Shown here: one piece after another, positions 2,596 to 25,534 of the stretch
Numbering within the stretch: position 1 is the first letter of the stretch
Layout of the letters: each line of letters begins with the position of its first letter
Source: Dehalococcoidia bacterium
GTDB lineage: Bacteria; Chloroflexota; Dehalococcoidia; Lucifugimonadales; JADFKI01
Direction of reading: 5' to 3'
Assembly: GCA_963665605.1 (NCBI GenBank)
Contig: OY762409.1
Span: forward strand, 3,491,436 to 3,523,435
DNA: 32,000 nt
Notes under the pieces: model-generated
The model's input: the letters and a program-made list of their open reading frames with translations, nothing else
What the model was told of the DNA's origin: nothing
Database searches by the model: none
Program-made: the position numbers and the translations under genes

Positions 2596-2916
2596 CTATC
2601 TGACTTGGCCCTTCGAAGCCACGTGACGGAAGGCAATCCGTCGGGAACCTACTGTGAAGATGGCGTCCCCTCCTTTGCCGCTAAGTACCCCTGTGCCTAC
2701 TGTCTGTAACGCGTGTACTCCTATAATTGGTGCCCTTGTTGGTCTACCCTGGAACATCAGGTATTGCTCTGCCCCATATGGTCTGGTCAATGCGATGCTG
2801 AGATAGTCTACATCGTCGTTTACGGCGCCAACAGTACCACTCTGGCATGCTTGCGCCTTGCAAGAATCGAATTTAGTATCGGTATGCTTGTACTTCAGTC
2901 CTTGCTGTCCGCTCAT
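2596..2916 (-). CDS. Hypothetical protein (doubtful ORF in an AT-rich gap)
   Basis: 106-aa ORF whose composition is not the R/S/P-rich type of the antisense artefacts seen elsewhere. It has no recognisable family and no SD sequence upstream of the ATG. Its codons mostly end in A or T, unlike neighbouring genes. Confidence 0.2.
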   Translation of the reverse strand: MSGQQGLKYKHTDTKFDSCKAQACQSGTVGAVNDDVDYLSIALTRPYGAEQYLMFQGRPTRAPIIGVHALQTVGTGVLSGKGGDAIFTVGSRRIAFRHVASKGQVR

Positions 2917-3184
2917 TTGAGGTGCTGCCGAGGTGCGAATTGACAGCGAAAGATTGCTATGCGCAGCTACTCGGCGCTAACTATGCCATTGCACCTCATG
3001 GCAGGAGTCCTCCCGATAACCTGGTCATTCCCTGTCTGTCATGTCTCGGCGCATACGGCTGTGGCAGCTTGCACAGTCTCGTCGGACTGCTGCCCTAGGA
3101 TTATTGACGGCACCCGCCTCAGTGCGTACTATCGGCAGCAGCAGTACAGGGCATCACTTCGAGGTTGCAATCAGGAGGTAGCGA

Positions 3185-4750: not shown

Positions 4751-4940
4751 TGTCCGGTGCCTGACGCATCACTCTGGAGGAATACAGTCTGTGCAAAGCA
4801 CGGAGCGCAACGGAGGGGTGGTCGGATAATCAAGGCTTGGAGTATCCGAGTGGGACGGATATATTCTAGGTGTGCACGCATCCGCGAGGTGGGAGATGTC
4901 CCTGATTGTTGCCAAGTTGCCAGTGGCCGTACTGCGAAGC

Positions 4941-6323: not shown

Positions 6324-6552
6324 GAGACAAAGCTACTCAATACCCGGTGACAAAGCAATAGAAGCTGCGGCGCGTAGAGAGGCGTGTCCTTGACCACCTG
6401 AGCAGTTCTGGGTTAGATTCAACGCCATATCCAGTTGACGGAAGACTATTCTGCGGAGCACGCTGTTCGCGCGTGCCACGCTCCGACTTTCGGCAGGCCA
6501 ACTAACCTCAGCATCACGCTACTTTGCAGATCACCAGAGAAGGAGAATCATC

Positions 6553-7314
6553 ATGCCGTTCTACGAAAGTGGCTCCAGCCGTATCTACTATGAAGAAGTT
6601 GGGTCGGGATTCCCTCTACTGATAATTCCGGGCGGAGGGCTTAATTCCACCGTGGCGTCGCTTGATACCTCGGTGCCCTTCAACCCAATGAAGACTTACC
6701 GGGACGACTTCCGATGTATCGCCGCCGACCTGCGCAATGCTGATCTGGGGCAGTCCAGCGGACCACTGGAGATCGACGGGCCCTGGGATGCCTACTCAGA
6801 AGACCAGCTTGGTTTGATGGACCATCTGGGCATTGATGAGTTCCTGGTCATGGGCTTCTGCATAGGCGGGCCGATGATCCACAATCTACTCAAATTAGCC
6901 CCGGAGCGCATCGTCGCGGCAGCAATGATGCAACCCAGCGGCTTCAATCCGGAAGCGCCGGATATTTTCTATCAGAACAATACAGCGCGGTGGGGGCCAC
7001 CACTCTGCGAAAGGCGTTCAGAAATCACATCGGGCATGGTCCACGACTTCCTGACCAGCATGTACACTGACCGCGCAGATTTCGTTTTCACCGTTTCCTG
7101 CGATTTCGTGCGTAACCTGCAGACTCCACTGCTGATAGCACCAGACGATGTGCCTGCGCACCCATACGCCTGCGCGATGGAGGTTGCCGATCTCGCCCCG
7201 AACTCCGAGGTTACTATCTTTCCATGGAAGGACTCGCAGGAGCACATCGACGAGGTCGTAACCCACGCCCGGCGTTTCCTGAAGACCCATGAGCCGGTAG
7301 CTGCGACTACCTAA
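6553..7314 (+). CDS. Alpha/beta-fold hydrolase with Cys in the nucleophile elbow
   Basis: YYEEVGSGFPLLIIPGGG oxyanion region. The elbow reads VMGFCIGGP (G-x-C-x-G), like the Cys nucleophile of dienelactone hydrolase. GAAGGAG RBS. Confidence 0.85.
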   Translation: MPFYESGSSRIYYEEVGSGFPLLIIPGGGLNSTVASLDTSVPFNPMKTYRDDFRCIAADLRNADLGQSSGPLEIDGPWDAYSEDQLGLMDHLGIDEFLVMGFCIGGPMIHNLLKLAPERIVAAAMMQPSGFNPEAPDIFYQNNTARWGPPLCERRSEITSGMVHDFLTSMYTDRADFVFTVSCDFVRNLQTPLLIAPDDVPAHPYACAMEVADLAPNSEVTIFPWKDSQEHIDEVVTHARRFLKTHEPVAATT

Positions 7315-7401
7315 ATATCCGGCGCCGCTGAGGCTCACGAGTTCTTAGTGGGCAGTGGGAAGGATCGGGAGATCTGCCAATTGGCCGGGAGCGACGGTAG
7401 T

Positions 7402-8172
7402 TCAGTTCGTTCTCCACTGCTCGGCATCGTCTTTGGGTTCGTACCCTATCAGATCGCGCGAGTTCGAGATGTCCCAGATGCGCCAGGTATTGTTGGATAC
7501 GCCGTAGAAGATCGCGAACCTGACGGTATCGGGTGCATCTATGCACTTGCTCACTAACTGCACCAGGTCGCGGTGTGACAGCAGGGTGGCGAAATGTCGA
7601 AGGTCTTGCGGTCTGCCCTCGCGGTTCAACGTTCCAATTCGAAGGCAGATTACTGACAGGCCGAAGTGGTCGGAGTAGTATCGTCCCGCCGCCTCTCCGA
7701 ACGCTTTGCCGATTCCGTAGGGTCCGTCCGGCCGTATGGGCATGTCCGCTGTCACGCGAGGGAAGGTCGCCGGGTCCAGTCCGTCATACCTGCCGGCAAC
7801 TATGGATGCGTAAGGCTCGTCCTCCTCGTAGTTGCCGGTCGCATGGTTGGAGCTGGCGAATATCACGCGCTTTGCCCCGGCCCGTCGAGCGGCCTCAAGC
7901 GCGTTATATGTCGAAGGCAGGTTGTTCCGATAAACGACATCCCAGGGGCTGTCCTGGTCCGGCACGCTGGCGAGATCGATTACCGTGTCCACCCCGTCAT
8001 AGGCAGGCAGCACAGCATCGAGATCGGAAGTGTCGGCAACCAGGCTGGTAAAGCCGTCCGCTGCCCTGATATCTACACCGGTTACATTGTGCGAGTCCTT
8101 AAGGCCGTTCTGGAGCAGTCCTCCTATGAGTCCGGCCGCTCCCGTTATTAGCACGTTTTTCCCGTCAGGCAT
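7402..8172 (-). CDS. NAD-dependent epimerase/dehydratase-family SDR, uronate dehydrogenase (Udh)-like
   Basis: VLITGAAGLIGG Rossmann motif, RVIFASSNHATGNY, catalytic YxxxK in RPDGPYGIGKAFGE, and C-terminal LIGYEPKDDAE. This closely follows the Udh pattern as I recall it. Confidence 0.85.
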   Translation of the reverse strand: MPDGKNVLITGAAGLIGGLLQNGLKDSHNVTGVDIRAADGFTSLVADTSDLDAVLPAYDGVDTVIDLASVPDQDSPWDVVYRNNLPSTYNALEAARRAGAKRVIFASSNHATGNYEEDEPYASIVAGRYDGLDPATFPRVTADMPIRPDGPYGIGKAFGEAAGRYYSDHFGLSVICLRIGTLNREGRPQDLRHFATLLSHRDLVQLVSKCIDAPDTVRFAIFYGVSNNTWRIWDISNSRDLIGYEPKDDAEQWRTN

Positions 8173-8395
8173 GTGGTTCTCCCTCGAATCCGTGATCGTC
8201 TGGAGTCATTCCGGCATTTGGGCCGGGTGCAGGTCATACGATGGTGAAGAGTTCTCTCCTATGTGACATGGCGGTTCGCTGGGATGAGAGACCTCATGGT
8301 ATCTTTCATCAGAGTACCCACCAAGCGCCCGTGGTTACTATATCAAACGCCTTACGCTTCAGACTACGAATATCACGAGACAAGGAGGAGACAAG

Positions 8396-9253
8396 ATGCT
8401 TGCGGACCTGGTTGAAGTCACGACACCTGATGGAATCCCGCTGAGTGGCGCCTATTTCGCGCCGACAAGCACGGGTCGCTCACATTCGATAGATGCCATA
8501 CTGTTCTTTCATGGCGATGGCGGCAACTTCTACAGCAGCCTTTATCTCTGGATGGGGCAGCGCATGTCGGAACAGGGCATAGCGTTCCTGACAGCCAACC
8601 GCAGGGGCCACGACCACATCGCTGCCGGTGCAAGAGGAGGGCCGCTAGCGGGATATGCCTTCGAGTCTGTTGATGACTCGCGAGCGGACTTCGGAGCGTG
8701 GCTTGACTTGCTGCGTGAGAGGGGGCACCGCCGCATAGCCATCGGAGGGCACAGCGGTGGAGCCGTGCGTGCCGCCTATGCGCAGGCACGGGAGAAGTTC
8801 GCAAATGTAGTGGCGGTGATACCGGTGTCTCCCGGCGAGTATGACCACGAAGGAATTATTGCACTGCACGGGGATGACTTCGCGGAGCCGTTTGGGGAGT
8901 CTGAGCGGAACATCGCTGAGGGCCGCCCGGATACGCTGCTTCGTCCAGGAGTTCCCTGGGGGTCAACGTGGAGTGCGCGCTCCTTTGTGGACTGCTTCAA
9001 TCGGGACAACCGATACAGCGTGACCACCCACGGGGCAAACACGGGTTGCCCAACGCTGTTCATATTCGGCTCCGAAGAATGCGCCGTCGGTGGACAGCAG
9101 GAGCTTCCGGTGTGCGGCGCTGCGCGACGAAGCCTCGGTGCTGCGGGCTACGCGCACGTGGACGTAGTGGAAATTGACGGAGCCAATCACGGATACTTAG
9201 AACGTGAACAACAACTGTTTGAGACGATGTTTTCTTGGATCGGCGGGCTATGA
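8396..9253 (+). CDS. Alpha/beta-fold hydrolase
   Basis: ILFFHGDGGNFYS oxyanion region, GGHSGGA nucleophile elbow (GxSxG), conserved late GANHGY. AGGAGG RBS upstream. Confidence 0.85.
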   Translation: MLADLVEVTTPDGIPLSGAYFAPTSTGRSHSIDAILFFHGDGGNFYSSLYLWMGQRMSEQGIAFLTANRRGHDHIAAGARGGPLAGYAFESVDDSRADFGAWLDLLRERGHRRIAIGGHSGGAVRAAYAQAREKFANVVAVIPVSPGEYDHEGIIALHGDDFAEPFGESERNIAEGRPDTLLRPGVPWGSTWSARSFVDCFNRDNRYSVTTHGANTGCPTLFIFGSEECAVGGQQELPVCGAARRSLGAAGYAHVDVVEIDGANHGYLEREQQLFETMFSWIGGL

Positions 9254-9728
9254 CGGGCTGTGATCAACTATAAGCCCTGACACCGTCTCAAGAGTCCATC
9301 CTATCGAATCTGATCCGCCTCGGAATCGCACCTGCCTGACGGATTCACTTTGCTGGCTTTTGCAATGTACGTCTGCCCTCTGATCGCCTTCGGGTGGCAC
9401 GATCAGACCGTTAGAATCGAGAACGCCATCCCTCCTTTGGGAAACGCGGAGAGCTATTGAGTCGCGCCGTAATTTCTTACACCTGATGCGGGGTAGCGCA
9501 GCGGCGTAACTCAGTTGTGTTGGTACATTGCGAGCATCCTTTGCGAATGCAATATTTGCTCCTTTACAGAGATTTTGGTCGGCTGTAAAATCACAAGGGC
9601 GCAGAGTACGGGCGACAATCATTCGCTTATGTAAGGCTTGCTCAAGATTCACCTCCATCTATGCCGTTCGTCGAACTCGCATCTAATCGGGTCTTAGTAA
9701 CCCTACCTTCGAAAATTCAGCACGGGGA

Positions 9729-12224
9729 TTGTCTTTCACTATGAACCAAATACTCGAAAAAATGAGCTTGCTCGTAACGGTACGACCATACATTACGCTC
9801 GTTGTCTTGCTCGCTATTACCGTATTGCTTGCCGCTGGGACTACGCTGCGCGTACCTCCGACGGAAGGCGCAGATGTAGCTTTTCTTCCGCCCGGGCACG
9901 CCGTCGCCAATGCGGCGCAGGAAATAGATGAGCTATTCGGGGACTCCGGCGACGTGAGCGTCGTCACACTCATTTTCCGCGGAGATGCGCTCACACCAGG
10001 CGGACTCTCCCAGATGTCCGGCCTGATCAACAAGATTGTCAGCGACCCGGCTGTAGGTGGGTTGCTGGTACCCGCCGACCCGGTAATCGCACCCTCTTTT
10101 CTGGTTCAGGCTGCGCTCCAATTGGAAAACCTGGAGTCGATCACGCAGGCAGAAATCGACGCTGTCGGCAATGTCCCACAAATTGGAGGGGCTATCGCCG
10201 CGATGACCGGAACCGACACGGACGGTACACCGGTTGCGATTGCCAACATTAGCCTGAGTGATACGGGTGAGGAAAGGGTCAAAGACGCGGAGCGGAGGAT
10301 CAACGAGTTAGCGGTGGGGGATAGTGGTCCTCTAGCTGTGAGCAGTCTATCACCCGCGATAGTCGAGGACGAGTACAGGGAAGCCACGGAATCGGGAATG
10401 GGGCCGCTTATAGGACTGGCACTGCTACTGATAACGGGGCTGCTCTTCCTGTTCACTCGCACCATCTCTGATACGCTGCTGACGCTATTAGGGCTCATAC
10501 TGTCGTTGACCTGGATTATCGGGGCAGAGGGCTGGCTAGGCCCGGAAGGGATCGGCCTGATAGGGCCACCGAGTTCGCTCACTGCGATGGTCCCGGTCAT
10601 CATCATCAGCCTCACAGTGGATTACGCAATCCAGGCGGTCTCCCATTATCGCGAGCAGCGTGCTGAAGGCGAGCCGGTTATTCAGGCAGTACGCAACGGG
10701 CTTCGAAACGTGACTGTGCCGCTTACACTGGCAGCCGTCACGACGATCGTCAGCCTGCTGGCTACCCTGTTCTCGCCGATCGGGGTGATTGGCGACTTCG
10801 GCATCGTCGCGGGACTGGGCGTCGGGTTGAGCCTGATAGTGATGCTGACACTGATACCGGCGGGCAGGACGATCATCGATCGGCGGCGCGAGTCGCGCGG
10901 TACATTGCCGCCTCCTCGCCCGCTCGCGAATGCATTGCCTGGGGTTAGCCAGATGGCGGAGCAGTTGGGCAGATGGGTTACGCGCAGGCCGGCACCCTAC
11001 ATTGTCGTCGTAATCTTGATCACCATAGGGCTTGGGTATGCCGCAACCGGCTTGAAGTCGGAATTCAGCATCCGCGACATCCTCCCCAGAGGTGGAAGCG
11101 TGGTCGAGGACATGGACACCCTCGAAGCCGCTGTCGGTGGTTCGACTGAGATCGCAACCCTCCTTGTGAAAGCCGAGGCGACGGAAACCCGCACTCTTCT
11201 GAATCTCCAGGATCTGACTTCTTCCTTCGGGGATGAGAATCGCCGTCCGCGTGCAGCGGCAGGCCCGATCCAGACGTCATATTATGCACATCTGCGAGAC
11301 TGGATCGACGACTCCGGCGAGCCCGGCGACAAATACGACCCTGAGCTTGAAGCACTTTTCCACCAGGCTTCAGCCGAGGTAGAACTTGATCCGGCTCTGA
11401 TGCAGGAATTACTCGATAAGCTTGTCGCGAGAGAGCCGGAACTGGCGCGCTTCCTGGTCAACGATCCACAGGGCATAGACACAATGTTGCTGCAGTTCCC
11501 AACTTATCTGGGCGATCCGGAGCAGTCCAGGATGATTCAGGAGGAAACAGAGGCGCTATGGTTCGGCGATGACAGCCACGTCACGGCGACTTCACCTAGC
11601 ATCGTCGCAGTCGCGGTTACGGACCAGATTACCGACGGCCAGACGGAGTCAATCAGCACTACCATTGCTGTGGCGCTGGGCATCCTCACTATCTTCTTCT
11701 GGGTGACGCTGCGCCAGCCGGCTCTGGGATTCGTCGCTGTGGGGCCCATCGTCCTCGTCCTCGTCAGCGTGCTGGGCACTATGGCGCTGTTGGACATCCC
11801 CTACACACTTGTCACCTCGATTATCACCGCGTTATCAATCGGCATAGGTGTGGACTACACCATACATGTCATTCACCGATACAGGGAGGAATACTTCCGC
11901 CTGCGCAACCCGGAGAGAGCGGCGGTTCGAACACTCGCGACTACGGGTTCGGCGTTGCTCGGATCTGCGCTGACGACGGCCATGGGATTTGGAGTGCTGA
12001 TTGCCTCACCGTTGCAGGCGTCGCAGCAGTTCGGCATCACGGCGACAATTACCATCGTCTATTCGCTGATAGTCTCCATACTGGTCGTGCTGCCCGCGAT
12101 GGTGGTCTGGGGGGCGTACCAGAACATGAGGCTTCGCTCCTCGATTGAACGCATGTGGAGCGAGCTTGACGTGGCAATTGAGGATATACATCTCCGACAC
12201 GAGAGGGGAGAGGGCGCATCGTAG
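9729..12224 (+). CDS. RND-superfamily MMPL/HpnN-like (HAE3-type) lipid transporter
   Basis: 831 aa with 1+5 / 1+5 TM topology and two large extracytoplasmic loops. Duplicated proton-relay Asp-Tyr motifs occur in the equivalents of TM4 and TM10 (SLTVDYAIQ and GIGVDYTIHVIHRY), as in MmpL/HpnN proteins. The track start at 9729 is TTG; the ATG at 9741 is an alternative. Confidence 0.9.
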   Translation: MSFTMNQILEKMSLLVTVRPYITLVVLLAITVLLAAGTTLRVPPTEGADVAFLPPGHAVANAAQEIDELFGDSGDVSVVTLIFRGDALTPGGLSQMSGLINKIVSDPAVGGLLVPADPVIAPSFLVQAALQLENLESITQAEIDAVGNVPQIGGAIAAMTGTDTDGTPVAIANISLSDTGEERVKDAERRINELAVGDSGPLAVSSLSPAIVEDEYREATESGMGPLIGLALLLITGLLFLFTRTISDTLLTLLGLILSLTWIIGAEGWLGPEGIGLIGPPSSLTAMVPVIIISLTVDYAIQAVSHYREQRAEGEPVIQAVRNGLRNVTVPLTLAAVTTIVSLLATLFSPIGVIGDFGIVAGLGVGLSLIVMLTLIPAGRTIIDRRRESRGTLPPPRPLANALPGVSQMAEQLGRWVTRRPAPYIVVVILITIGLGYAATGLKSEFSIRDILPRGGSVVEDMDTLEAAVGGSTEIATLLVKAEATETRTLLNLQDLTSSFGDENRRPRAAAGPIQTSYYAHLRDWIDDSGEPGDKYDPELEALFHQASAEVELDPALMQELLDKLVAREPELARFLVNDPQGIDTMLLQFPTYLGDPEQSRMIQEETEALWFGDDSHVTATSPSIVAVAVTDQITDGQTESISTTIAVALGILTIFFWVTLRQPALGFVAVGPIVLVLVSVLGTMALLDIPYTLVTSIITALSIGIGVDYTIHVIHRYREEYFRLRNPERAAVRTLATTGSALLGSALTTAMGFGVLIASPLQASQQFGITATITIVYSLIVSILVVLPAMVVWGAYQNMRLRSSIERMWSELDVAIEDIHLRHERGEGAS

Positions 12225-12250
12225 GCGGCACGCTCCGGAGGTTTTCCTAC

Positions 12251-13303
12251 ATGTTGAAGAGTCTCTCGCAACTTCGTGAACTATCCACAGGGCTGAAGTC
12301 CGCGTACCGCGGCTTCGACACCCACCTCCGCACGAGAGAATTCGAAGGCTGGACTGACAGGGCGAGCGTGGAGGATGACGGTGCGATCGGCTACGACCAC
12401 GCTGAAACCGTCAAGGAATACTATGACCTTTGCGGTGAGTTCATGTTGTTCGGTTGGGGCGAATCCCTACACTTCGCACCGCTATCGCCCCGCGAAAGCT
12501 TGGAGGACTCCAAGATACGGCATCAGCGACTGATGATTGCCAAATTGGAGTTGCTCGAAGGGATGACAGTCATTGATATTGGCTGTGGGATAGGTGGCCC
12601 GATGCGCCGCGTCGTCCGGGAGGCCGGAGTCAGGGTAGTTGGAGTCAACAACAACGAAATCCAGCTGAAGAAAGCGAAGTCGTTGAATACTGAGGCGGGC
12701 ATCGCCCACATGGTTGATTATAAGGCTTGCAGCTTCATGGATATGGGCACCGTCGCTGACGACACTTTTGATCGGGGCTACGCGATAGAGTCGACTTGCC
12801 ATGCGCCGGATAAGGCGGGAGCGTTCGCCGAGATATACCGAGTGCTGAAACCCGGCGCGCTTTTCTGGGGTCAGGAAATGTGCCTGACGGACGAGTTCGA
12901 CCCCGACGACAGGCGACACCGCGCCATCAAGCGGGAGTTGATGCACGGGATCGCGCTCAAGGACATAGCGACGATGGGCGAGGTCAACCGCGCTCTCGAA
13001 GCGGCGGGATTCCAGGTCATCGAGGGGAGAGACCATGCCGTCGAGGGGGACAGTCAGACCACGCCTTGGTATCAGCCGATGGAAACCCGGCACGGAACGC
13101 TAGGCGACGCTCTGCGTAGGACTCCACTGGGCCGCAAGTTGATGATGTGGGCATCTAGGCTTGCAGAGGCAGTGGGGGTGTTTCCGAAAGGCTCCTCGGA
13201 CGTAATAGGTCTGATGGATCGTACCGCCAACGCCTATGTCGAGGGTGGCAGGGCGGGCATTTTCACACCGCTGTACTGTTTTCTGGCTCGCAAGCCGCTT
13301 TAG
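12251..13303 (+). CDS. Sterol 24-C-methyltransferase (SMT/ERG6) family SAM-dependent methyltransferase
   Basis: All SMT signature regions are present. Region I: YYDLCGEFMLFGWGESLHFAP (12419-12478). SAM motif: VIDIGCGIGGP (12569-12601). YAIESTCHAP (12779-12808). Sterol_MT_C-like tail: TPWYQPM...LGRKL...PKGSSDV...EGGRAGIFTPLYCFLARKP. It aligns along its length with yeast ERG6 as I recall it. GGAGG RBS, 26 nt after the RND stop codon. Confidence 0.9.
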   Translation: MLKSLSQLRELSTGLKSAYRGFDTHLRTREFEGWTDRASVEDDGAIGYDHAETVKEYYDLCGEFMLFGWGESLHFAPLSPRESLEDSKIRHQRLMIAKLELLEGMTVIDIGCGIGGPMRRVVREAGVRVVGVNNNEIQLKKAKSLNTEAGIAHMVDYKACSFMDMGTVADDTFDRGYAIESTCHAPDKAGAFAEIYRVLKPGALFWGQEMCLTDEFDPDDRRHRAIKRELMHGIALKDIATMGEVNRALEAAGFQVIEGRDHAVEGDSQTTPWYQPMETRHGTLGDALRRTPLGRKLMMWASRLAEAVGVFPKGSSDVIGLMDRTANAYVEGGRAGIFTPLYCFLARKPL

Positions 13304-13354
13304 AAATCTTGGTCGCGGTCCGTCGTCCAGACTGTCGGGCGTGCCCGTGGCGCA

Positions 13355-15382
13355 CTAGAAGTTAATCTCGTGCCGCTGCTCGGCGATGCGGAACTTCAGC
13401 TTCTTGCTTGGCTTCATGGATGGCAGCGGACTGAACTTGAGCTTGTAGTCGCCAGGCGACACCTTGAGCGTAAAGTAATGCGCGACCATGAGCACATTGA
13501 CGGCGAGCTGCGTTTCCATCCACCGCGAGCCGAGACAAATATGCGTGCCCAGTCCGTAGGGCGCGTATCCGGGGCTGTGGTGCTCGTTGCGCGGTGGCAG
13601 GTATCGGTCTATGTCGAATGTGGTCGAGTCGGGAAAGAACTCGTCCATGAAATGGGTCGCCGCCTGAGCGATAACGAGCTTCGCTCCCAACGGTAGCTGA
13701 TAACCTTCGACCATGCACGAATTCATCACATGCCGCATAGACACAGGCACTATTGGGTAGAGGCGCAGGCTCTCCATGAGGAAGCGATGGGTGACATCGA
13801 TCGAGGACGGAGTGAGGTCTTCGGGATTCGGGTCGCCGTTCTCGAATAGTGCGTCGGCCTCTTCTTGGATCCTGGCGTAGATTTCAGGTTGCGAGGCCAT
13901 TGCGTATAGCGCGAAGCTGAACGCGTCGCCAAGGTACACACTGGCAATCAAAGCCGCCGATAGAGCGAATCGCAGGTTCGACTCCGGGTAGAACTGTGGG
14001 TCGCTCGCGTGTAGGCTCAGAATGTCGTCGGCAAGATTTCTAGAAGCGTCAGCCCGCTGAGCGGGCGTATGCACGCTCTGTATTCGTTCCAGTAAGATGT
14101 CCACCGATTTCGCGCGGCGTCTCATGCCCGGGGTTTTCAGCATGAATTTGGGCAGAGCCTTCACGATGTGAGTGCTGAGCGCCCGCTCCTTGTACTCCGC
14201 CAAGTCGTCAAAGATGTCCTGAGAATCGACGCTGACAAAGAGCGGAGAAATCTGTGAGTTTATCATTCGGCGGCACATGCGCGTGGCGGGGTAGGCGTCT
14301 CCAACCGTCCACTCTGCCATATGTTTCCGCGCGTAATTGATTAGCTGGTCCATCTCGCCCATTAATCTGTTGCGAGAATATGCCGGCGACAAGGACTTGC
14401 GGAGGCGAAAATGGTCTGCCCCGTCCATCGAAGGCAATACCCCGGACGCGCCATAGACCTTTTCGAAGTCGGAAAAGTAGTCCCTGGTTCTCAGATGCAG
14501 GCGTCCTTGCCGATGCACCCAGCGATTCGTGTCTGCCCCTGCCAGGACTATTATCGGCTCGGTTAACGGAGGCCGCAGTTCGAATACTGGGCCGTACTCG
14601 CGCGCGAGGTCCGCGAAGAGCGCGGGGACGTTTCCGGTGCGAATATGCGGATTGAACAGCAGCTTGCTCAGAGAGACGACAGGGATTTTCCTGGTGAGGC
14701 TGGATTGTCGGAGCGCCGGACCCGCGAGGTTGTGGGAGACTGCATTGGTGATTGCCCGTCCGATCAAGTCAATCTTGGAAATGGCTTGGATACGCGCTTC
14801 CACCTCGTCATCCAACTGGAATATGAAGCGCAATACGTCGCACGTATTGAGCAGGCCGATGATGATGACCTCTCTCGGATAGGGAATCACATCATTGAAC
14901 AGCACCCTTCTGATGCGCGATGCGATGAACTCAGTCGCGGTGCCGTCTTCGTCATCGAAGTTCATATCTGCTCGACCGACAGTTCGGGATAGCGTCCAGA
15001 ACTCTCCGTCGTGATGCTCAAGGATATTCAGATGGACAAGTCGGTCCAGAGTCAGCTCGATGATCGACTCTGCACGAGGAGCGAGCCTTTCGATCCAGTA
15101 CTGCGCGTCCCGTTGAGTCGTTTCCTCCGCAATCGTCTTGAGGATGGGATCGAGGACAGGATCGCCGACTTCGGTCTGATCCAGAAGAATCAGGGAATCC
15201 CTGTCCGTGTCAATGCGAGAAATGAGCGATAACTCAGCGAGTACGGCGCCAATGACGGCGCAGTTTAGGTCCCAGCCCGGGACCTGATGGAAGTATCCGG
15301 TCTCCTCGTTGAGGAGCATCAGAATCAACTCTTCCGGCAAGCTTAGAGGCTGAGTCGTCACACCTTCCATTAAGAGAGTCAC
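13355..15382 (-). CDS. Fusion protein: N-terminal GPP34/GOLPH3-like domain plus C-terminal cytochrome P450
   Basis: The first ~230 aa (about 14693-15355) match the GPP34 pattern: LPEELILMLLNEETGYF...AVIGAVLAELSLISRI...DPVLDPILKTI...WIERL. The remainder is a P450 with ExxR (ESLRLYP) and the haem loop PYGLGTHICLG. The Cys-616 codon TGT is at 13535-13537, checked by hand. GTG start with AGGGAG 8 nt upstream. Confidence 0.9.
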   Translation of the reverse strand: MTLLMEGVTTQPLSLPEELILMLLNEETGYFHQVPGWDLNCAVIGAVLAELSLISRIDTDRDSLILLDQTEVGDPVLDPILKTIAEETTQRDAQYWIERLAPRAESIIELTLDRLVHLNILEHHDGEFWTLSRTVGRADMNFDDEDGTATEFIASRIRRVLFNDVIPYPREVIIIGLLNTCDVLRFIFQLDDEVEARIQAISKIDLIGRAITNAVSHNLAGPALRQSSLTRKIPVVSLSKLLFNPHIRTGNVPALFADLAREYGPVFELRPPLTEPIIVLAGADTNRWVHRQGRLHLRTRDYFSDFEKVYGASGVLPSMDGADHFRLRKSLSPAYSRNRLMGEMDQLINYARKHMAEWTVGDAYPATRMCRRMINSQISPLFVSVDSQDIFDDLAEYKERALSTHIVKALPKFMLKTPGMRRRAKSVDILLERIQSVHTPAQRADASRNLADDILSLHASDPQFYPESNLRFALSAALIASVYLGDAFSFALYAMASQPEIYARIQEEADALFENGDPNPEDLTPSSIDVTHRFLMESLRLYPIVPVSMRHVMNSCMVEGYQLPLGAKLVIAQAATHFMDEFFPDSTTFDIDRYLPPRNEHHSPGYAPYGLGTHICLGSRWMETQLAVNVLMVAHYFTLKVSPGDYKLKFSPLPSMKPSKKLKFRIAEQRHEINF

Positions 15383-15464
15383 CAGTCTTGCTCCCTGTGC
15401 GTAATACTGATTGATTCAGCCCATTTGACTCAAGGATACCCTAGCGCGCTGGTCGCGGAAAGGG

Positions 15465-15474
15465 GTACATGTAC
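15465..15474. promoter_or_regulatory. Perfect palindrome GTACATGTAC in the divergent P450/Rieske intergenic region
   Basis: Seen directly. Three CCATTT(G/A) copies also lie at 15420-15427, 15504-15510 and 15570-15577 in the same 278-bp divergent promoter region. Short motifs like these can arise by chance. Confidence 0.2.
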
Positions 15475-15660
15475 AATTCAAATAGGAACTCTCGTAATTT
15501 GGTCCATTTGTAACAGTTGCCTGAGTGCAGGATGTCATGTCCAGGCCGACCATCCTTGCATAAGATATCCCATTTACCAACAATGAGCGGATATTTAGAG
15601 AGTCGCTGTTCTCGGGCTGGCAGACTTGGCTGGACAAAAGGTGAGTGTGAGGGCTGATAG

Positions 15661-16695
15661 ATGGTTACCAGACGCAGAGAATTCACATACGTTCAGTCGC
15701 CCGATCCCTTCCCCGAAGGTTGGTACTTCGTCGCTACTCGAAAGGCCGTACTAAAGGCCAAGCTCATTCAGAAGACTTGGATGGGCGAGAACATCGTTGT
15801 CTGGAGTGACAAGAATGACCGCGTCTGTGTAGCCGAAGCCGTCTGTCCACATCTTGGAGCCGATCTCGGACCATCAGCCGGGGGCAGCATACGCGACGGA
15901 CGGCTGTTATGTCCTTTCCATGGCTACGAGTTTGACGCCACTGGACAATGCGTCGGCACTCCTTTTGCCCCTCCTCCCAGGGCAGCGAAGCTGCGAGTCT
16001 TCGAGACGCAGGAGATTCTCGGCCTGATCTTCGCATGGTGGGGCATCGGGGGACGTGAACCGCAATGGCGCCTACCCGATGATACTTTGGGGGAAGTTGG
16101 ATGGGGCGAATTCATAATCAACACCCTCCGTTTTCCCGGTCATCCACAGGAAACAGCGGAAAACTCGGTAGATCTGGCACATCTCCGCTATGTGCACGGC
16201 TACGATAACGTGAATCCAATCGTGGAGGCGGATGTGGACGGCCCACGCCTGAAAACTCGCTTCGACTTCAAGAGAACACGAACAATCGCGGGCGCCGTAA
16301 ACCTCACCTTCGATATTTCTGCCAGCGCAACCATCGTAGGTCTTGGCTATTCGTTTGTGGAGGTACGGGAGCATTCGATTGGCATGGATTTGCGCCTGTG
16401 GGTGCTAGCGACGCCAGTCGATGGGAATCTCATTGACATGACTCTGGTTTCACAGGCGCGGGAGATACGAAAGCCGAAGCGAATATTTGCAGGCCTTGGG
16501 TTTCTCCCCGTGGGTCTCCGCGCTCCCATTATCAATAGATTCATGGCCTCTCAGCAAAAGCAGGACGTTCTTCAGGACGTGGTTATCTGGAGCAAAAAAC
16601 AGTACCGGTCCCGCCCGCGACTCTCGCGCTCTGACGGCAAAATCATGCCGTTCAGGCACTACTGCACCCAGTTCTACCCCGACCCAGAGGATTAG
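15661..16695 (+). CDS. Rieske [2Fe-2S] non-haem-iron oxygenase, KshA/Neverland-like
   Basis: Rieske motif CPHLGADLG-x13-CPFHGYEF (C62, H64, C84, H87; 15844-15921). Mononuclear-iron motif ENSVDLAHLRYVH (DxxHxxxxH; 16171-16197). GAGGG RBS. Confidence 0.9.
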   Translation: MVTRRREFTYVQSPDPFPEGWYFVATRKAVLKAKLIQKTWMGENIVVWSDKNDRVCVAEAVCPHLGADLGPSAGGSIRDGRLLCPFHGYEFDATGQCVGTPFAPPPRAAKLRVFETQEILGLIFAWWGIGGREPQWRLPDDTLGEVGWGEFIINTLRFPGHPQETAENSVDLAHLRYVHGYDNVNPIVEADVDGPRLKTRFDFKRTRTIAGAVNLTFDISASATIVGLGYSFVEVREHSIGMDLRLWVLATPVDGNLIDMTLVSQAREIRKPKRIFAGLGFLPVGLRAPIINRFMASQQKQDVLQDVVIWSKKQYRSRPRLSRSDGKIMPFRHYCTQFYPDPED

Positions 16696-16884
16696 GACAA
16701 CTTCCTCGGCACTTGCCTTGAACGAGACAGGTTGGCTGACGCCTTCCCTTTCTTGCAGTCCGTTGTGGCAGATCTTGTCCAGAGAGCCGGCCGATTCATC
16801 TTCGTAGATGCTCCTTGATGCCCTCAGTTTCCTGCAACTCTAGTAAGCCACGGCAATTGTGGCGGATTATTTCCAAACGCCTTG

Positions 16885-18291
16885 TCAGCTCAGGATCGGC
16901 CATTCAGGTTGCGGGTCTATACCAAGCCGCTTCGCTCGCGAAATGACCGAGTCAGAGACGTTTCGGTAAGACTCGTCCTCGTCCACTCGTGTTGAGTGGC
17001 CTCCACTGAAGATGATTTCACCGTTGACAATGACCGTATCCACGCTTCCGGCTCCCATCGTTAGCGTGAGGAGGTGGAGCGGGTTGTTGGCAGGGTAGGA
17101 TTCGGCCGCCCGCGCGGACCTCACAACGACATCCGCACGCTTTCCGGCTTCCAGGCTTCCCAGTTCCGTGCTCATGCCCGCTGCCGCAGCTGCGTTGATT
17201 GTCTGCATCTCGAGCAAGGCCTCAGGGGAAAGGGGATCGTCGTAGGTCTGTGACGCGAACCGTCCAGCAAGCATGGTATGTCCGGGTGTGCTGTCCCGCG
17301 CAGCGTCGGTGCCAAGCGCGACAGGTACTCCTCTGCGATGTCGTTCTGCCATCTTGAAATGCGCACTGCTTCCAAGTCCGAGCGAGAAGAAGGCAGCAGG
17401 ACACCAAACGATCTGACAGCCGGATTGCTGTACCGCCCTTTCCTCCGCTTCGTCCAGTACGTTGGCATGGACGATGGCGGTGTGCTCGTCAAGGACGCCG
17501 AGTTCTTGCATGTGAACGAACTGGCTGACGCCGTTCAAAGCTCGATAGATTTCTGCTTCCTCCGGCACGTACCCGGCGTGCAGATGCAATGGCACATTGT
17601 TGTCGCGAGCGCATTGATGGGCAGCCTGCAATAGCGCGGGTGAAGCAGTTCCTAGTCCATAGATGAAAACGAAGCCTCGGACTAGAGCATCGGAGTCACT
17701 GTTGCGGTGAAGTTCCACATCCAGCTGCTCAAGTGACCGGTCGAGATTCACGGGTGCGCGATCCGTCAGACTCGGACTCACCAGTGATGGAATCGCATCG
17801 AAGGTCTCCTGCCGGTCCCAGAGGTAGAGCGGGCCGAAAAGTGCTCTCAGACCCACGCGTTCTACCGCTTGCGCCGCCGCATCGGTTGCAAACAGCGAGC
17901 CTGGCTCGATAAACATCGTGAAGCCACATCGAAGCATTTCCAGTCCGGCCATGGCGGTTGCCGCAGCCTCGTCTTCATCGGTAACTCCCGCCTTCCAGTC
18001 TGCGAAATTGACGGACGATGAGCCGGAGTTCCGCACGTTGGCGAACACCCCCCTGCAGGAAGTATGAACGACGTGATTGTGGGCGTCGATGAAGCCGGGA
18101 TGAACTATGCCGCCTCCTGCATCCACGGTCTGCTTCGCATCGAAGCGTTGCAGTAACTCGCTATCCGCGCCAACTTCCACGATGCGCGAGCCGGTGATCG
18201 CCACCGCACCCGGACGGAGAATCCTGCGTTCGGCATCTACCGTGACGACCTGGCCGTCGCGAATGAGGATATCGCATGTGCGCTTGTTCAT
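16885..18291 (-). CDS. Metal-dependent amidohydrolase-superfamily protein (deaminase/chlorohydrolase-like)
   Basis: N-terminus CDILIRDGQVVTVD, HxH metal motif HPGFIDAHNHV, later HLHA and HANV motifs and GTDA. The track ORF begins at GTG 18363. The ATG at 18291 (MNKRTCDILI...) has GGAG 8 nt upstream and gives a typical family N-terminus. Confidence 0.9.
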   Translation of the reverse strand: MNKRTCDILIRDGQVVTVDAERRILRPGAVAITGSRIVEVGADSELLQRFDAKQTVDAGGGIVHPGFIDAHNHVVHTSCRGVFANVRNSGSSSVNFADWKAGVTDEDEAAATAMAGLEMLRCGFTMFIEPGSLFATDAAAQAVERVGLRALFGPLYLWDRQETFDAIPSLVSPSLTDRAPVNLDRSLEQLDVELHRNSDSDALVRGFVFIYGLGTASPALLQAAHQCARDNNVPLHLHAGYVPEEAEIYRALNGVSQFVHMQELGVLDEHTAIVHANVLDEAEERAVQQSGCQIVWCPAAFFSLGLGSSAHFKMAERHRRGVPVALGTDAARDSTPGHTMLAGRFASQTYDDPLSPEALLEMQTINAAAAAGMSTELGSLEAGKRADVVVRSARAAESYPANNPLHLLTLTMGAGSVDTVIVNGEIIFSGGHSTRVDEDESYRNVSDSVISRAKRLGIDPQPEWPILS

Positions 18292-18702
18292 TTTCTGTGC
18301 TCCAGAATTTCCGCTTGGTGAGTGGGTTACGAGATTCTGATTTATTGCCATTCCTTGTACCACTTTCTATGCGCAACCTTCTAGCGCCGCGATGCCAGCT
18401 TTCTTGTTACAAGTCAGTCTGTGCTCATGAGAAGGAATCAGAAGCGGGCTTCCGAATTTACAGCAGCAAACACCGCCCGATTGGAAATGACTGGTGAATC
18501 CGAGCGATGTTGAGAAGACATTAATTGCATAGCTCTCTCGCTGTTTCCGTTCCAGTGTGGCACTGGCACTATTGAATTAGGTCAAGTATATATGTTATGG
18601 GACAACATAAATCACATCTTCTGGTAAGTGTTCGCTGGCACAAAGTTCGCTGCCTATGTCTCCGGAAAGTTATATGAAGTTGGCAATTGAGGAGAATTAA
18701 CC

Positions 18703-20580
18703 ATGAAGCAAACTAAGTCCAAGCCGGCTGTCAGAAATTGGTCAACCATATCTATATTTGCGTCTATCACATTAGCGTTGATGTTCATCGCATACCTGCT
18801 GTCCTTCCCGGTGGCAAATGCCCAGACGAATAGGAGTCCGGTGGGTGCCTTGGAACGGGAGCTGAATGGTCATAGTTCGCTGAACGAGAGTGAGGAGGGA
18901 TTCGGGGGTGAGTACACTAGCCGGTCTGTGGCTAGCGGTTACCTTCATGATTCAGGTGATATTCAGAATGGTCGTGATACTGCTACTACTTACAAGGTTG
19001 AGCAATTGGAACAGAGTAACGCCACAGTTGCAATGCAGCTTACGCCAGTGCCGTCTGTCTCCGGCATCTCCATCTCTAGCGATTCTGGCAGCGACGGTAC
19101 GTATGCCACCGGAGACATCATTAAGGCGGCTGTTACCTTCGACGCCGCGGTGACCGTGGACACTACCGGCGGCACTCCGTACCTGGAGCTGACGCTAGGC
19201 AGCGACAGACAGAAGGCAACCTACTCTTCCATTAAATTGAGAAACACTGTCCTCATATTCACATACACCGTGGTCTCCTCTGACGACGATCAGGATGGGA
19301 TATCCGTTGTCGCCAACTCACTGGCGCTTGACGGTGGCACAATCGAGGCGAGGGGATCCGGCACGGATGCGCTGCTCGATCACACGGCGCTACCTGACCA
19401 GGGAGGTCACTTAGTCAACAAGATACCCAAGATAATTACGGACGGTATCGCAATTACCTCCACGCCTAAGGCAGCCGAAGACACATACGGGTTAGGAGAG
19501 ACGATCAAGGTCAGCGTACCGTTTGACTCCGTAGTGGTGGTAAGCGGTAACGACGTCATTCTGACCTTTATTGCTCGGTTCGGTGATGCGAACCATACCA
19601 ACCAGTCAAAGGCATTCTCCTACGTGGGAGGCTCAGGCACGAATACGCTAAACTTCGAACGCGTCGTAATCGCGATAGACGTGGACAGCGATGGCATTTA
19701 CGTGCCGAAATACCACTTGAATCTCCAGGGAGGCACGTTGACGCATGCCACCACCGGTCGCAATGCGGACTTGAGCTACGGCCTTCCCGGTCAGATGGGC
19801 GCGTTTCCTGAGCACAAGGTTGACGGAAGTCTGCTACCGCCTTCTTCGTTCGGACTTTGTGGGGCGCGTGTTGGCACGGGAAGCGGCTTCGTACTAGACG
19901 CGGAGCTGGACCTGTGCTGGGAAACCGGAGCAGAGATTCCGGCGCGTAATGACGTTGTAATCGAATCTCGTTACAGGATCTTCTGGTATGACGGCGACCC
20001 GTTCTCGGAGTGGCGCGAAACCGGGCGTGGAAACGACTTTACCGCATGCTCCCAGGGTCGAAGCGATTGCATAAAGTTCACTCATCGAGGATTGATGCGA
20101 GGCTCACCGGCAACCTATGAGATGCGGATTCGTGAGGGTGACAACGTGCTGTCAACTTCAGGACAGCTGGATGCACAAGCGCCAAACGAGAACGATGCAA
20201 TACTGAACGCGGAACTGTACGGCTGCTATGAAATGGGCGGCTTTAAGCCCTGCGGAAATGCTGCGCGGGGCGCGTTCTGGATGGAACTGACATTTACTGA
20301 CCCGGAGGTTGAAGCACTGTCTGTTGAAACCGTCATCGGCCTCGAACCTTCCGACTTCGAGATAACCAACGGCGGCGTGCTGGCCGTCCAGCCCTGGGAT
20401 GGCACGGTTTACAGGGTTATCGTTTTGCCGGGAACACTGGGCCAACCGGTGACAATCAGCCTGCCTGCGAATCGTGCGAAGGGTGTCGGCGAAGGTATTA
20501 GCGCTGACGGCGGCAATAACTACACAAGGGTTAACACAGCATCGAATGTGGTGACGCAGCAAACGGCAGAGCGGGAGTGA
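18703..20580 (+). CDS. Secreted or cell-surface protein with two tandem beta-sandwich-like repeats, a Cys-containing central region and a C-terminal Ig-like domain
   Basis: Signal peptide MKQTKSKP...LLSFPVANA|Q. Repeat 1 (about 19054-19416): DGTYATGDIIKAAVTFDAAVTV...LIFTYTVVSSDDDQDGISV...LALDGGTIEA. Repeat 2 (about 19432-19824): EDTYGLGETIKVSVPFDSVVVV...LNFERVVIAIDVDSDGIYV...LNLQGGTLTHA. C-terminus: PSDFEITNGGVLAV...YRVIVLP...PVTISLPAN. GAGGAG RBS. Confidence 0.85.
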   Translation: MKQTKSKPAVRNWSTISIFASITLALMFIAYLLSFPVANAQTNRSPVGALERELNGHSSLNESEEGFGGEYTSRSVASGYLHDSGDIQNGRDTATTYKVEQLEQSNATVAMQLTPVPSVSGISISSDSGSDGTYATGDIIKAAVTFDAAVTVDTTGGTPYLELTLGSDRQKATYSSIKLRNTVLIFTYTVVSSDDDQDGISVVANSLALDGGTIEARGSGTDALLDHTALPDQGGHLVNKIPKIITDGIAITSTPKAAEDTYGLGETIKVSVPFDSVVVVSGNDVILTFIARFGDANHTNQSKAFSYVGGSGTNTLNFERVVIAIDVDSDGIYVPKYHLNLQGGTLTHATTGRNADLSYGLPGQMGAFPEHKVDGSLLPPSSFGLCGARVGTGSGFVLDAELDLCWETGAEIPARNDVVIESRYRIFWYDGDPFSEWRETGRGNDFTACSQGRSDCIKFTHRGLMRGSPATYEMRIREGDNVLSTSGQLDAQAPNENDAILNAELYGCYEMGGFKPCGNAARGAFWMELTFTDPEVEALSVETVIGLEPSDFEITNGGVLAVQPWDGTVYRVIVLPGTLGQPVTISLPANRAKGVGEGISADGGNNYTRVNTASNVVTQQTAERE

Positions 20581-20694
20581 CGGGGGCAACTTGCCTTTTC
20601 ACTACTAACTGGAGCGTCTCTGAAACTGTACCCTGCTGACCGTGAACGGCCGCACCCGCCTGCATAATCAGCTGGACTAGGAAACCTTCAGATC

Positions 20695-20737
20695 TCACCG
20701 CCTAGGACGAGCAATTATTGAGCGTCCTGGGCGGTGA
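20695..20737. repeat. 43-bp near-perfect palindrome or hairpin (15-bp stem with one G-T pair, 13-nt loop)
   Basis: Paired by hand: 20695-20709 (TCACCGCCTAGGACG) against 20723-20737 (CGTCCTGGGCGGTGA). The loop AGCAATTATTGAG is itself partly palindromic (CAAT-T-ATTG). Neither side has a U-tract. It lies 115 bp after the surface-protein stop and 190 bp before the MBL-hydrolase start. Confidence 0.5.
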
Positions 20738-20927
20738 AGGATATAAGGTGTGTCCGCATGAGTGCAAAAGGTAGCCTGTATGCAGTATGCTTGCTGACCA
20801 TAGAGGGTGCGCAGTGAGGATCGGCGCAAATTGAACTTCCAATACAATGAAGCATAGACGCGCCGATGATGCGCTAATATGCGGCGGGTAAGGCGAAACA
20901 GGAGTCCACAGAAGAAGGAGTTTCCAA

Positions 20928-21770
20928 TTGACCACTACACCGGGAACCGAACTCATAGAACTTGAATCGGGCGTCTTCGCCCGGCTGCATGAAGGACTGA
21001 CAAACGCCGGGATTATAATCGGCGATGAAGGTGTGTTGGTAATAGACTCGCTGCGAGTCCCTTCATTCGCGCGAGACCTGATTCAGGACGTCAAGCACAT
21101 TACCGACAAGCCGATTCAGTACCTGGTGGACACCCACTCGCACTGGGACCACGCGTGGGGTAATGAGGAGTTTCCCGATGCCACGATCATCGGACACGAG
21201 AACTGCTACAACGAGATGGTGGACGTGGAATGGAACAGGGAGTGGCGCGAGAAGGTAGTAAGTTCCGGCGACCCGTGGTCCGAAGAAGCCGGACTGGTAA
21301 CGATTACACCTCCCAACCTCACCTTCGAGACTAGCATGAGACTCTACTTCGGCGGGAGAGAGCTGCATCTCAGGTACCTGGGTAGGGCGCACACCAGCGG
21401 CGATACTCACATCCAGCTGCCGGACGACGGCATTGTCTTCTGCGGGGATGTCGCGCAGGATGGCGGGCTTCCCTATTTCGGCGACAGCTACCCGAAGGAG
21501 TGGCCGGACACCGACGACCGGCTTGTCGGTCTGCCAGTCGAGCGGTTTGTCTCCGGACATGGTCCTGTCGGAGAGCATTCCGCGTTGGAGGAGGCGAGGG
21601 ACTTTATTTATGATCTCGTCGGCGCCCTGAAATCTGCGGCCAGCGAAGGCAGGAGCGCGCAGGAGGCATCTTCCTTGACAGTTGCCGCCTTGACTCCACG
21701 TTATGGAGGGTGGCGGAGTTTTGAACGCCTCGAAGAATCCTTGCCGGAGGTGTACGGCAAGCTCGCATAA
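20928..21770 (+). CDS. MBL-fold metallo-hydrolase
   Basis: HxHxDH motif DTHSHWDHAWG, later HTSGD and GHGP. TTG start preceded by GAAGGAG. Confidence 0.9.
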   Translation: MTTTPGTELIELESGVFARLHEGLTNAGIIIGDEGVLVIDSLRVPSFARDLIQDVKHITDKPIQYLVDTHSHWDHAWGNEEFPDATIIGHENCYNEMVDVEWNREWREKVVSSGDPWSEEAGLVTITPPNLTFETSMRLYFGGRELHLRYLGRAHTSGDTHIQLPDDGIVFCGDVAQDGGLPYFGDSYPKEWPDTDDRLVGLPVERFVSGHGPVGEHSALEEARDFIYDLVGALKSAASEGRSAQEASSLTVAALTPRYGGWRSFERLEESLPEVYGKLA

Positions 21771-21985
21771 CTCACGCTTTTGGTTCTAGCGGCGCGCTCC
21801 GTGTGCAGGGCGACAAATGCATGATTACCGCCGGCGTGGAGATCATCTGCAAGTCGGATGTGTAGGAATCCTCAAAACCGCTTTGAGTGTCGTCCTCTTG
21901 CGTCAAAGGGGCGGGGACAAACCCTACCACTGCGCCACTGGGTTCACATAAGATTCGCCCGCGAGTTTTCGTAGGATAGGCAGCG

Positions 21986-25511: not shown

Positions 25512-25534
25512 CCTGCTGGCGTTTAATCGGAAAC

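Follow-up and report, generated by a model that had tools for sequence, protein, structure and literature searches.

The window, i.e., a 32,000-nt stretch of contig OY762409.1 from a Dehalococcoidia bacterium (assembly GCA_963665605.1, positions 3,491,436 to 3,523,435), carries at nt 13355–15382 on the minus strand a gene in which a GPP34 domain is fused to a cytochrome P450 (all positions are those of the window). The open reading frame (ORF) encodes 675 aa from a GTG start to a TAG stop, contains no internal stops, and is preceded by an AGGGAG Shine-Dalgarno-like motif ca. 8 nt 5′ of the start codon. Pfam profiles placed GPP34 (PF05719) at aa 15–216 (nt 14735–15340, minus strand; profile positions 1–199 of 201, E-value of 3e-30) and p450 (PF00067), which is complete, at aa 248–663 (nt 13394–14641, minus strand; E-value of 6e-34). 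A preliminary description of this DNA, made from its letters alone, had read a single frame without stop or frameshift that joins a full GPP34 to a full P450, and this is borne out by the ORF call and by two near-complete Pfam matches, the N-terminal one included. Both domains are connected by an interdomain linker with a Pro-containing hinge (aa 217–247, ...RKIPVVSLSKLL...; nt 14642–14734, minus strand), delimited from the sequence and the structure model. The hinge reads IPVVSL, and the equivalent stretch in paralogues is IPxAxGLPxxGN. In microsomal P450s, a transmembrane N-terminal anchor precedes the hinge, i.e., at the position that is occupied by GPP34 in the fusion.

Judging from its sequence, the P450 half possesses the heme-thiolate hallmarks of this superfamily. 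Alignment located the ExxR motif of the K-helix as E537-S-L-R540 (nt 13763–13774, minus strand) and the heme-binding loop as YGLGTHICLG (nt 13529–13558, minus strand), with Cys616 (nt 13535–13537) as heme ligand. Among 71 diverse family members, E537 and C616 are invariant, and R540 is nearly so. Of the two motifs announced earlier, ExxR stands as described, and FxxGxHxCxG holds except for its first position, which is Tyr instead of Phe (Y609-G-L-G-T-H-I-C616-L-G).

The I-helix spans aa 467–497 according to the model and alignments (nt 13892–13984, minus strand). It reads ...LSAALIASVYLGDAFSFALYAMAS..., exactly as quoted in the preliminary description, and the quoted stretch ...ASVYLGDAFSFALY... 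falls within the modelled helix. When aligned with 45 diverse fusion paralogues, A480-S-V-Y483-L484 lies opposite the canonical A-G-x-(D/E)-T, so that neither the acid nor the Thr is present. Specifically, in a comparison via an AGHYT intermediate, Y483 occupies the acid position and L484 that of the Thr (nt 13931–13936 for both residues), followed by a one-residue deletion. Across 32 relatives of 71–98% identity, Y483 is invariant and L484 nearly so. The (A/G)Gx(D/E)T oxygen-activation motif, which is typical but not obligatory for membership of the P450 superfamily, is thus lacking, confirming the earlier suspicion of an I-helix without acid-alcohol pair, and the missing Thr suggests that the enzyme may perform non-canonical chemistry. 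A textbook comparison shows the conserved alcohol residue to be absent as well from P450eryF/CYP107A1, CYP74, CYP8A1, and CYP152, although no specific sequence relationship to these Thr-less P450s was detected and the combination of a Tyr at the acid position with a deletion constitutes a different solution.

An AlphaFold2 (AF2) model built on the diverse 71-sequence alignment reached a mean predicted local distance difference test (pLDDT) score of 88.6 and a predicted template-modelling (pTM) score of 0.84. An earlier run on 32 close homologues, before distant paralogues were added, had yielded a pLDDT of 59.8 and an uninformative Foldseek ranking. Low confidence was found at aa 1–10, in an acidic loop (aa 135–146), and in the linker, which alone, at aa 226–228, dropped below 50. 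For a chain of 230 + 440 residues, a pTM of 0.84 suggests that the relative placement of both domains is defined and confidently predicted. The solved structures nearest to the P450 half are CYP184A1 (7wzl; TM-score of 0.84) and the P450 BM3 heme domain (about 0.8), both of which are E-class P450s with lipophilic substrates. The best sequence matches included a CYP102-like P450 (E-value of 4e-21), CYP51 (1.8e-17), CYP97, CYP120, and CYP725. The nearest folds and the best sequence matches alike are P450s acting on lipid or terpenoid substrates. NCBIfam matches of this half (e.g., pentalenene oxygenase) stayed far below their cut-offs and were uninformative as to function.

The possibility that the fusion is itself a CYP51 was rejected, given the modest E-value above versus 1.7e-103 for a true CYP51 encoded beside an orthologue of the fusion (see below), and given an I-helix that reads ASVYLG and not AGQHTS. 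CYP51 nevertheless offers a parallel, since it is an E-class sterol P450 in which the I-helix acid is replaced (by His), and since the Methylococcus CYP51–ferredoxin fusion (6mcw) provides a bacterial precedent for fusing such an enzyme. However, CYP51 is only distantly similar to the protein studied here, whose partner domain is non-redox and N-terminal.

A search of 5.8 billion proteins, clustered at 90% identity, retrieved more than 120 clusters that match the fusion protein at 71–100% identity. All of these contain both Pfam domains, almost all are ca. 675 aa long (range 654–682), and some are encoded on contigs of up to 4.9 Mb. An exhaustive search among 50%-identity representatives revealed dozens more full-length fusion clusters (650–690 aa) with identities down to 26%, consistent with a common origin, while the closest unfused P450s are ca. 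30–41% identical. Two further architectures were encountered among these representatives, i.e., a tandem GPP34-GPP34 protein (P0218, 444 aa) and a GPP34-GPP34-P450 protein (P0131, 872 aa). Scanning one genome per species confirmed 195 relatives in at least 10 bacterial lineages. The best 80 of these 195 (67–97% identity) all derive from metagenome-assembled genomes (MAGs) and belong to Chloroflexota (SAR202/Dehalococcoidia), Binatia, Latescibacterota, Opitutales (Opitutia), Nitrospirales, Thermodesulfobacteriota, Alpha- and Gammaproteobacteria, Gemmatimonadota, and Acidimicrobiia. In SAR202 cluster bacterium bin90 (locus L001), the fusion is 97% identical and synteny extends across all 22 kb compared.

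With regard to habitat, the fusion also matches contigs of the Aplysina aerophoba metagenome JGIcombinedJ30088. Its closest relatives are encoded by MAGs named APA_bin and SB066x_bin and by RHO, COS, and jk18x bins, the latter three of which we take to be sponge-derived, next to many MAGs whose OZ/OY titles give no host. The APA and SB066x bins originate from Aplysina aerophoba and Ircinia ramosa, respectively (PMC11706023). The combination of GPP34 and cytochrome P450 has in fact been published under the name GPP34_L, with 656 proteins reported from the sponge-symbiont phyla analyzed (Ferreira et al. 2025, Microbiome 13:4, PMC11706023), so that neither the novelty implied by the preliminary description nor its label "unusual" could be upheld, this architecture being common within sponge symbionts. 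GPP34_L is the second commonest GPP34 architecture, forms a single clade, and is found only in sponge symbionts; the family is absent from the free-living relatives of these symbionts and is expressed in situ (PMC11706023). The fusion in the window shares with GPP34_L the PF05719-then-PF00067 order, the length of ca. 675 aa, the phyla, and the occurrence of several paralogues per genome, and is a member without structural difference. Rare variants that combine GPP34 with a Rieske domain or an ABC ATPase in one fusion have been reported as well (PMC11706023).

The strongest clue to the function of the fusion came from its flanking genes, which the preliminary description had overlooked. Convergent with the fusion lies a 350-aa sterol C-24 methyltransferase (SMT) homologue (nt 12251–13303, plus strand), with a Sterol_MT_C domain (E-value of 3e-16) next to a methyltransferase domain, that also matches the CMAS (cyclopropane/mycolic-acid synthase) models (E-value of 4e-16). 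This gene is preceded on the same strand, at a distance of 26 nt, by a gene for an 831-aa transporter of the MMPL/resistance-nodulation-division (RND) type with a sterol-sensing domain (nt 9729–12224, plus strand; E-values of 5e-44 for MMPL and 2e-13 for Sterol-sensing), which shows weak and partial matches to HpnN and BstA. On the other side, and divergent from the fusion, a 344-aa KshA-type Rieske non-heme-iron oxygenase is encoded (nt 15661–16695, plus strand; E-values of 2.5e-17 for Rieske and 8e-22 for KshA_C), whose best PDB match is the 3-ketosteroid 9α-hydroxylase KshA (E-value of 1e-24) and whose CxH...CxxH motif is present. Rieske proteins constitute a second oxygenase class that is both fused to GPP34 in the published family and encoded beside the fusion P450. 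A role of this protein as a mere electron donor was considered and rejected because of its KshA_C catalytic domain and intact E-x3-D-x2-H-x4-H iron motif. The divergent intergenic region between the fusion and the Rieske gene measures 278 bp according to the ORF coordinates (nt 15383–15660); no match to the sigma-70 consensus was found in it, which is uninformative for Chloroflexota.

Neither Pfam nor an iron–sulfur motif scan of all ORFs of at least 45 aa revealed a ferredoxin or reductase in the window, in agreement with the earlier statement that no redox partner is present there. Likewise, the window does not contain an oxidosqualene cyclase or a CYP51. Farther out it encodes, among others, a GMC oxidoreductase, a major facilitator superfamily (MFS) transporter, two alpha/beta hydrolases, a 3β-hydroxysteroid dehydrogenase (3β-HSD)-like epimerase, and an amidohydrolase. 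The GMC oxidoreductase (nt 3185–4750, plus strand) and the NAD-dependent epimerase with its weak 3β-HSD match (nt 7402–8172, minus strand) are located upstream of the sterol-type genes.

The conservation of this neighbourhood was assessed by tblastn with the window proteins at the 80 loci of the best relatives, with a 10-kb flank on each side. A Rieske homologue was found near the fusion orthologue in 69 of these 80 loci and an SMT homologue in 62, with 75 loci having one or both of them. The RND transporter recurred in 42 loci, mainly in Chloroflexota, and alternative RND systems were seen at the fusion loci of other lineages. Every remaining window gene was conserved in at most 8 of the 80 loci; the GMC oxidoreductase (3/80) and the epimerase (2/80) therefore probably fall outside the mobile module. 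More than 40 distinct gene orders and orientations occur among the 80 loci, indicating that the association has outlasted rearrangement and inter-phylum transfer and does not reflect simple inherited synteny.

De novo clustering of all ORFs at the same loci uncovered additional neighbours. An FAD amine-oxidoreductase-like protein, of which the window has no copy, recurs in 41 of the 80 loci, and 13 loci have a homologue of the sterol reductase ERG4/ERG24. The former gene (e.g., L059:6193–7581, plus strand, 462 aa) usually forms a convergent pair with the Rieske gene. No ferredoxin or reductase was present among the recurrent neighbours within these 10-kb flanks. Four loci, each from a different phylum, additionally encode a squalene epoxidase and an oxidosqualene cyclase no more than 10 kb away from the fusion orthologue (Pfam; L028:~14560–17955, plus strand; L036:4520–7927, minus strand; L043:14134–17943, plus strand; L053:2639–6523, minus strand). 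Both enzymes are joined in a single ORF of 1135–1294 aa with FAD_binding_3, SE, and SQHop_cyclase_N/C domains and a DCTAE motif. Two of these four loci also encode a second P450 of ca. 490 aa, and the one that was tested (L028) proved to be a CYP51.

Locus L028, from a Thermodesulfobacteriota MAG and inspected gene by gene, displays an almost complete sterol cluster (positions 2122–22005) with two tandem GPP34–P450 genes. One strand carries, in turn, genes for an outer-membrane protein (OMP), a membrane fusion protein (MFP), AcrB, a GPP34–P450 paralogue, the orthologue of the window gene, ERG4/24, CYP51 (E-value of 1.7e-103 to Methylococcus CYP51), and the squalene epoxidase–oxidosqualene cyclase, while the opposite strand carries those for an SMT, a Rieske oxygenase, and a 3β-HSD-like reductase. 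The upstream paralogue has a different Thr-less I-helix (QALDP). The AcrB gene of this locus is split in two overlapping ORFs (4419–5747 and 5519–7657), which may be due to a frameshift or an assembly error.

These arrays share their gene families (i.e., SMT, Rieske, ERG4/24, CYP51, oxidosqualene cyclase, and NAD-dependent reductase) with the ERG24-CYP51-LSS "CSGs" (Kelly et al. 2022, PMC9531527) and the SMT/sdmA/sdmB clusters (Brown et al. 2023, PMC10070321) described earlier, and also resemble them in bacterial lineages and in the evidence for horizontal transfer. According to the former study, clusters of sterol genes are over-represented in sponge symbionts and have spread horizontally, and the latter study showed that sterol methyltransferases of sponge symbionts act on sterols in vitro. 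Nevertheless, the main text and the six supplementary text files of the latter study make no mention of P450, Rieske, or GPP34 (PMC10070321), and the former mentions CYP51 and "a hypothetical protein" only, and no GPP34–P450 (PMC9531527). Conversely, the words "sterol" and "methyltransferase" never occur in the GPP34_L study, which analyzed flanking genes for the unfused GPP34 form alone and addressed neither the function of the P450 half nor pocket residues, structure, or secretion signals (PMC11706023). No paper that links GPP34–P450 to sterols was found in the literature searched, whose silence is no proof of absence, and both the sterol neighbourhood and the degenerate pocket described below thus appear to be new.

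As a specificity control, metagenomes were scanned with the distant-paralogue alignment and the fusions grouped by I-helix type. Among 20 loci with a canonical AGx(D/E)T helix, only one had an SMT and none a Rieske gene, whereas 10 encoded an APH/ecdysteroid-kinase-like (EcKL) phosphotransferase and 9 an MFS transporter. The IAGHY(T/L/V) type (15 loci) was accompanied by a Rieske gene in 8 cases, all eight just upstream and on the same strand, and by an SMT in 3. For the type found in the window, i.e., IAS(V/I/M)YLG or VAAMYMG (10 loci), an SMT was encountered in 6, a Rieske gene in 3, and an FAD oxidoreductase in 3. The atypical Tyr I-helix is therefore associated with the sterol-type neighbourhood, and the Thr-less I-helix marks one branch of the GPP34–P450 family and not the whole family. 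In the canonical-type paralogues (L081–L100; e.g., L090:6328–7551 and 7595–9295), the APH/EcKL kinase and MFS transporter genes are situated downstream of the fusion and form a separate conserved module.

The GPP34 half adopts a GOLPH3 fold (AF2 pLDDT of ca. 80–94), and a profile built from 22 diverse GPP34 domains of fusions matched human GOLPH3 (3kn1; E-value of 1.4e-12) and yeast Vps74 (6e-12). The projecting β-hairpin of this fold family (GOLPH3/Vps74; 3kn1, 2zii) is conserved at aa 118–132 (LNILEHHDGEFWTLS; nt 14987–15031, minus strand), where model and alignment equate it with the GOLPH3 β3/β4 hairpin. It aligns with the GOLPH3 stretch VLTTEKQNFLLF in the profile alignment, has its modelled strands at aa 121–124 and 128–131, and is invariant at L121, H124, G126, F128, W129, and T130 in close relatives. 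In contrast, the phosphatidylinositol 4-phosphate (PI4P) pocket, which is the sole lipid site known from this fold and in GOLPH3 consists of W81, R90, R171, and R174 (human numbering; Wood et al. 2009), is replaced in the sequence alignment by P35, I44, E105, and I108. None of the three arginines is retained in the alignment of the Tyr-type clades, where W37, two residues off the W81 position, is conserved, and about half of the canonical-clade fusions retain the R174 equivalent only. Moreover, unlike GOLPH3 and Vps74 with their basic membrane-binding face, this bacterial and enzyme-fused domain is acidic, its 18 K+R versus 38 D+E amounting to a net charge of about –20. The N-terminus of the fusion (MTLLMEGVTTQPLSLPEEL...) bears no Sec/Tat-like signal, and no clear transmembrane segment is apparent in the protein, its hydrophobicity peaking in helices of the domain cores. 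On sequence grounds, pocket, charge, and N-terminus thus argue against PI4P recognition and Sec/Tat export, while some lipid- or membrane-related role of the GPP34 half seems plausible.

Taken together, and with a confidence only slightly better than even, we interpret the fusion as a sterol-tailoring P450, other than CYP51, that belongs to a mobile sponge-symbiont sterol module, has modified its oxygen activation, and is localized or docked at the membrane by its GPP34 domain. The protein would then be a cytoplasmic heme-thiolate P450 behind a GOLPH3-fold domain, encoded within a horizontally mobile gene set for sterol synthesis and tailoring. Its substrate would be a sterol or sterol intermediate, and its reaction an oxidative tailoring step that probably differs from 14α-demethylation because a true CYP51 co-occurs with it. 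Either Tyr483 or a hydroxyl of the substrate might take over from the Thr-acid proton relay, or the chemistry might depart from standard hydroxylation. Electrons would be supplied by a ferredoxin and a reductase whose genes lie in another part of the genome. Finally, GPP34 could, in place of an N-terminal anchor, attach the enzyme to the membrane in which sterols reside or to one of the membrane proteins of the pathway, with docking onto a protein being slightly favored by the acidity of the domain.

Several points weigh against this interpretation. Gene neighbourhood is circumstantial evidence, and no redox partner is clustered with the fusion P450. Since the window lacks both an oxidosqualene cyclase and a CYP51, the bacterium might modify sterols of host or dietary origin, or another lipid. 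In addition, the strongly acidic GPP34 domain fits poorly with direct binding of anionic bacterial membranes, which favors docking onto a protein instead.

The missing redox partner would be explained if the P450 half were not a monooxygenase but an O2- and NAD(P)H-independent isomerase or dehydratase of sterol peroxides, or else a peroxygenase, either of which would be compatible with a sterol substrate. CYP74 and CYP8A act in such a way, as isomerases or dehydratases, on their substrates, and epidioxy-sterols occur in sponges. The conserved replacement of the acid-alcohol pair by Tyr-Leu together with the one-residue deletion in the I-helix, the likewise Thr-less (QALDP) paralogue in the L028 sterol array, and the absence of a ferredoxin or reductase gene nearby all fit this possibility. 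Nevertheless, many Thr-less P450s still depend on O2 (EryF uses a hydroxyl of its substrate, and CYP51 has a His in place of the I-helix acid), the Thr is kept in part of the sister clade (AGHYT), bacterial P450 genes often have no clustered partners, and the sequence showed no similarity to CYP74, CYP8A, or CYP152. We therefore deem the loss of monooxygenase activity unlikely.

A tailored lipid other than a sterol, i.e., a hopanoid or other triterpenoid, a carotenoid, or a fatty acyl chain on which the sterol-type neighbours would act as well, appears rather improbable to us. The CMAS matches of the methyltransferase (E-value of 4e-16), the partial similarity of the RND transporter to the hopanoid transporter HpnN, and the co-crystallization of CYP184A1, the nearest P450 structure, with oleic acid are all in line with it, as is the FAD amine-oxidase-like neighbour, which presumably resembles the lipid desaturases UfaD and HpnE. 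However, the Sterol_MT_C domain is specific to sterol methyltransferases, the same arrays comprise ERG4/24, CYP51, and an oxidosqualene cyclase with DCTAE motif, and homologous symbiont methyltransferases act on sterols in vitro.

According to the only function put forward for this family so far, sponge-symbiont GPP34 proteins, including the P450-fused ones, are secreted effectors that bind host PI4P and block phagosome maturation, so that the symbiont escapes digestion (PMC11706023). Such a role would agree with the confinement of the family to sponge symbionts, its absence from free-living relatives, and its expression in situ, with PI4P binding by the eukaryotic GOLPH3 and Vps74, and with the retained GPP34 fold and β-hairpin; in principle, an E-class P450 might even take electrons from a host reductase. 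For the fused form, though, we regard it as quite improbable, because the protein displays neither a Sec/Tat-like N-terminus nor a clear transmembrane segment, the pocket is devoid of basic residues in its clade, the domain has a charge of about –20, and the gene lies in arrays with those for sterol enzymes and transporters of the cytoplasm and inner membrane. Moreover, the study that proposed the effector role did not look at the flanks of the fused form, nor at pocket residues, structure, or secretion signals. Finally, an assembly or frameshift artefact that merged two genes is excluded, as hundreds of independent assemblies from many phyla, including closed chromosomes of 3–6 Mb, have the same ca. 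675-aa ORF, with a linker that is conserved and confidently modelled.

Extending the interpretation as a sterol-tailoring enzyme beyond this one gene, we tentatively entertain, as the less likely outcome, that the Tyr-type GPP34–P450 proteins form an unrecognized sterol-modifying class, in which a GPP34 domain that has lost PI4P binding stands in for the membrane anchor and docks the P450 on the sterol machinery and which, together with the SMT and the Rieske oxygenase, builds or remodels the unconventional sterols of sponges. The P450 could, for example, introduce an unsaturation or oxidation required for repeated side-chain methylation. If so, the published phagosome-escape explanation for the sponge-specific enrichment of GPP34 would be wrong for the fused form. 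The sterol neighbourhood and the non-conserved pocket make a testable candidate enzyme of an enigmatic "symbiosis marker", for which a secreted PI4P-binding effector is the sole hypothesis in print. This bears on the handling of sterols by bacteria, which lack the membrane systems of eukaryotes, and on whether sponge symbionts can produce sterols with modified side chains, which serve as the oldest biomarkers of animals. The fusion would also illustrate how, in nature, a soluble adaptor domain can substitute for the N-terminal anchor that E-class P450s carry.

Elsewhere in the window, a DDE transposase gene (nt 26909–28234, minus strand; DDE_Tnp_1_4, E-value of 2e-60) is located within the most GC-rich kilobase (65% versus ca. 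57%), which suggests a mobile element of recent insertion. Three ORFs had no Pfam match, i.e., those at nt 986–1720 (plus strand, 244 aa), nt 18703–20580 (plus strand, 625 aa), and nt 24795–25631 (minus strand, 278 aa). The 625-aa ORF has an 88%-identical homologue on the syntenic L001 contig.

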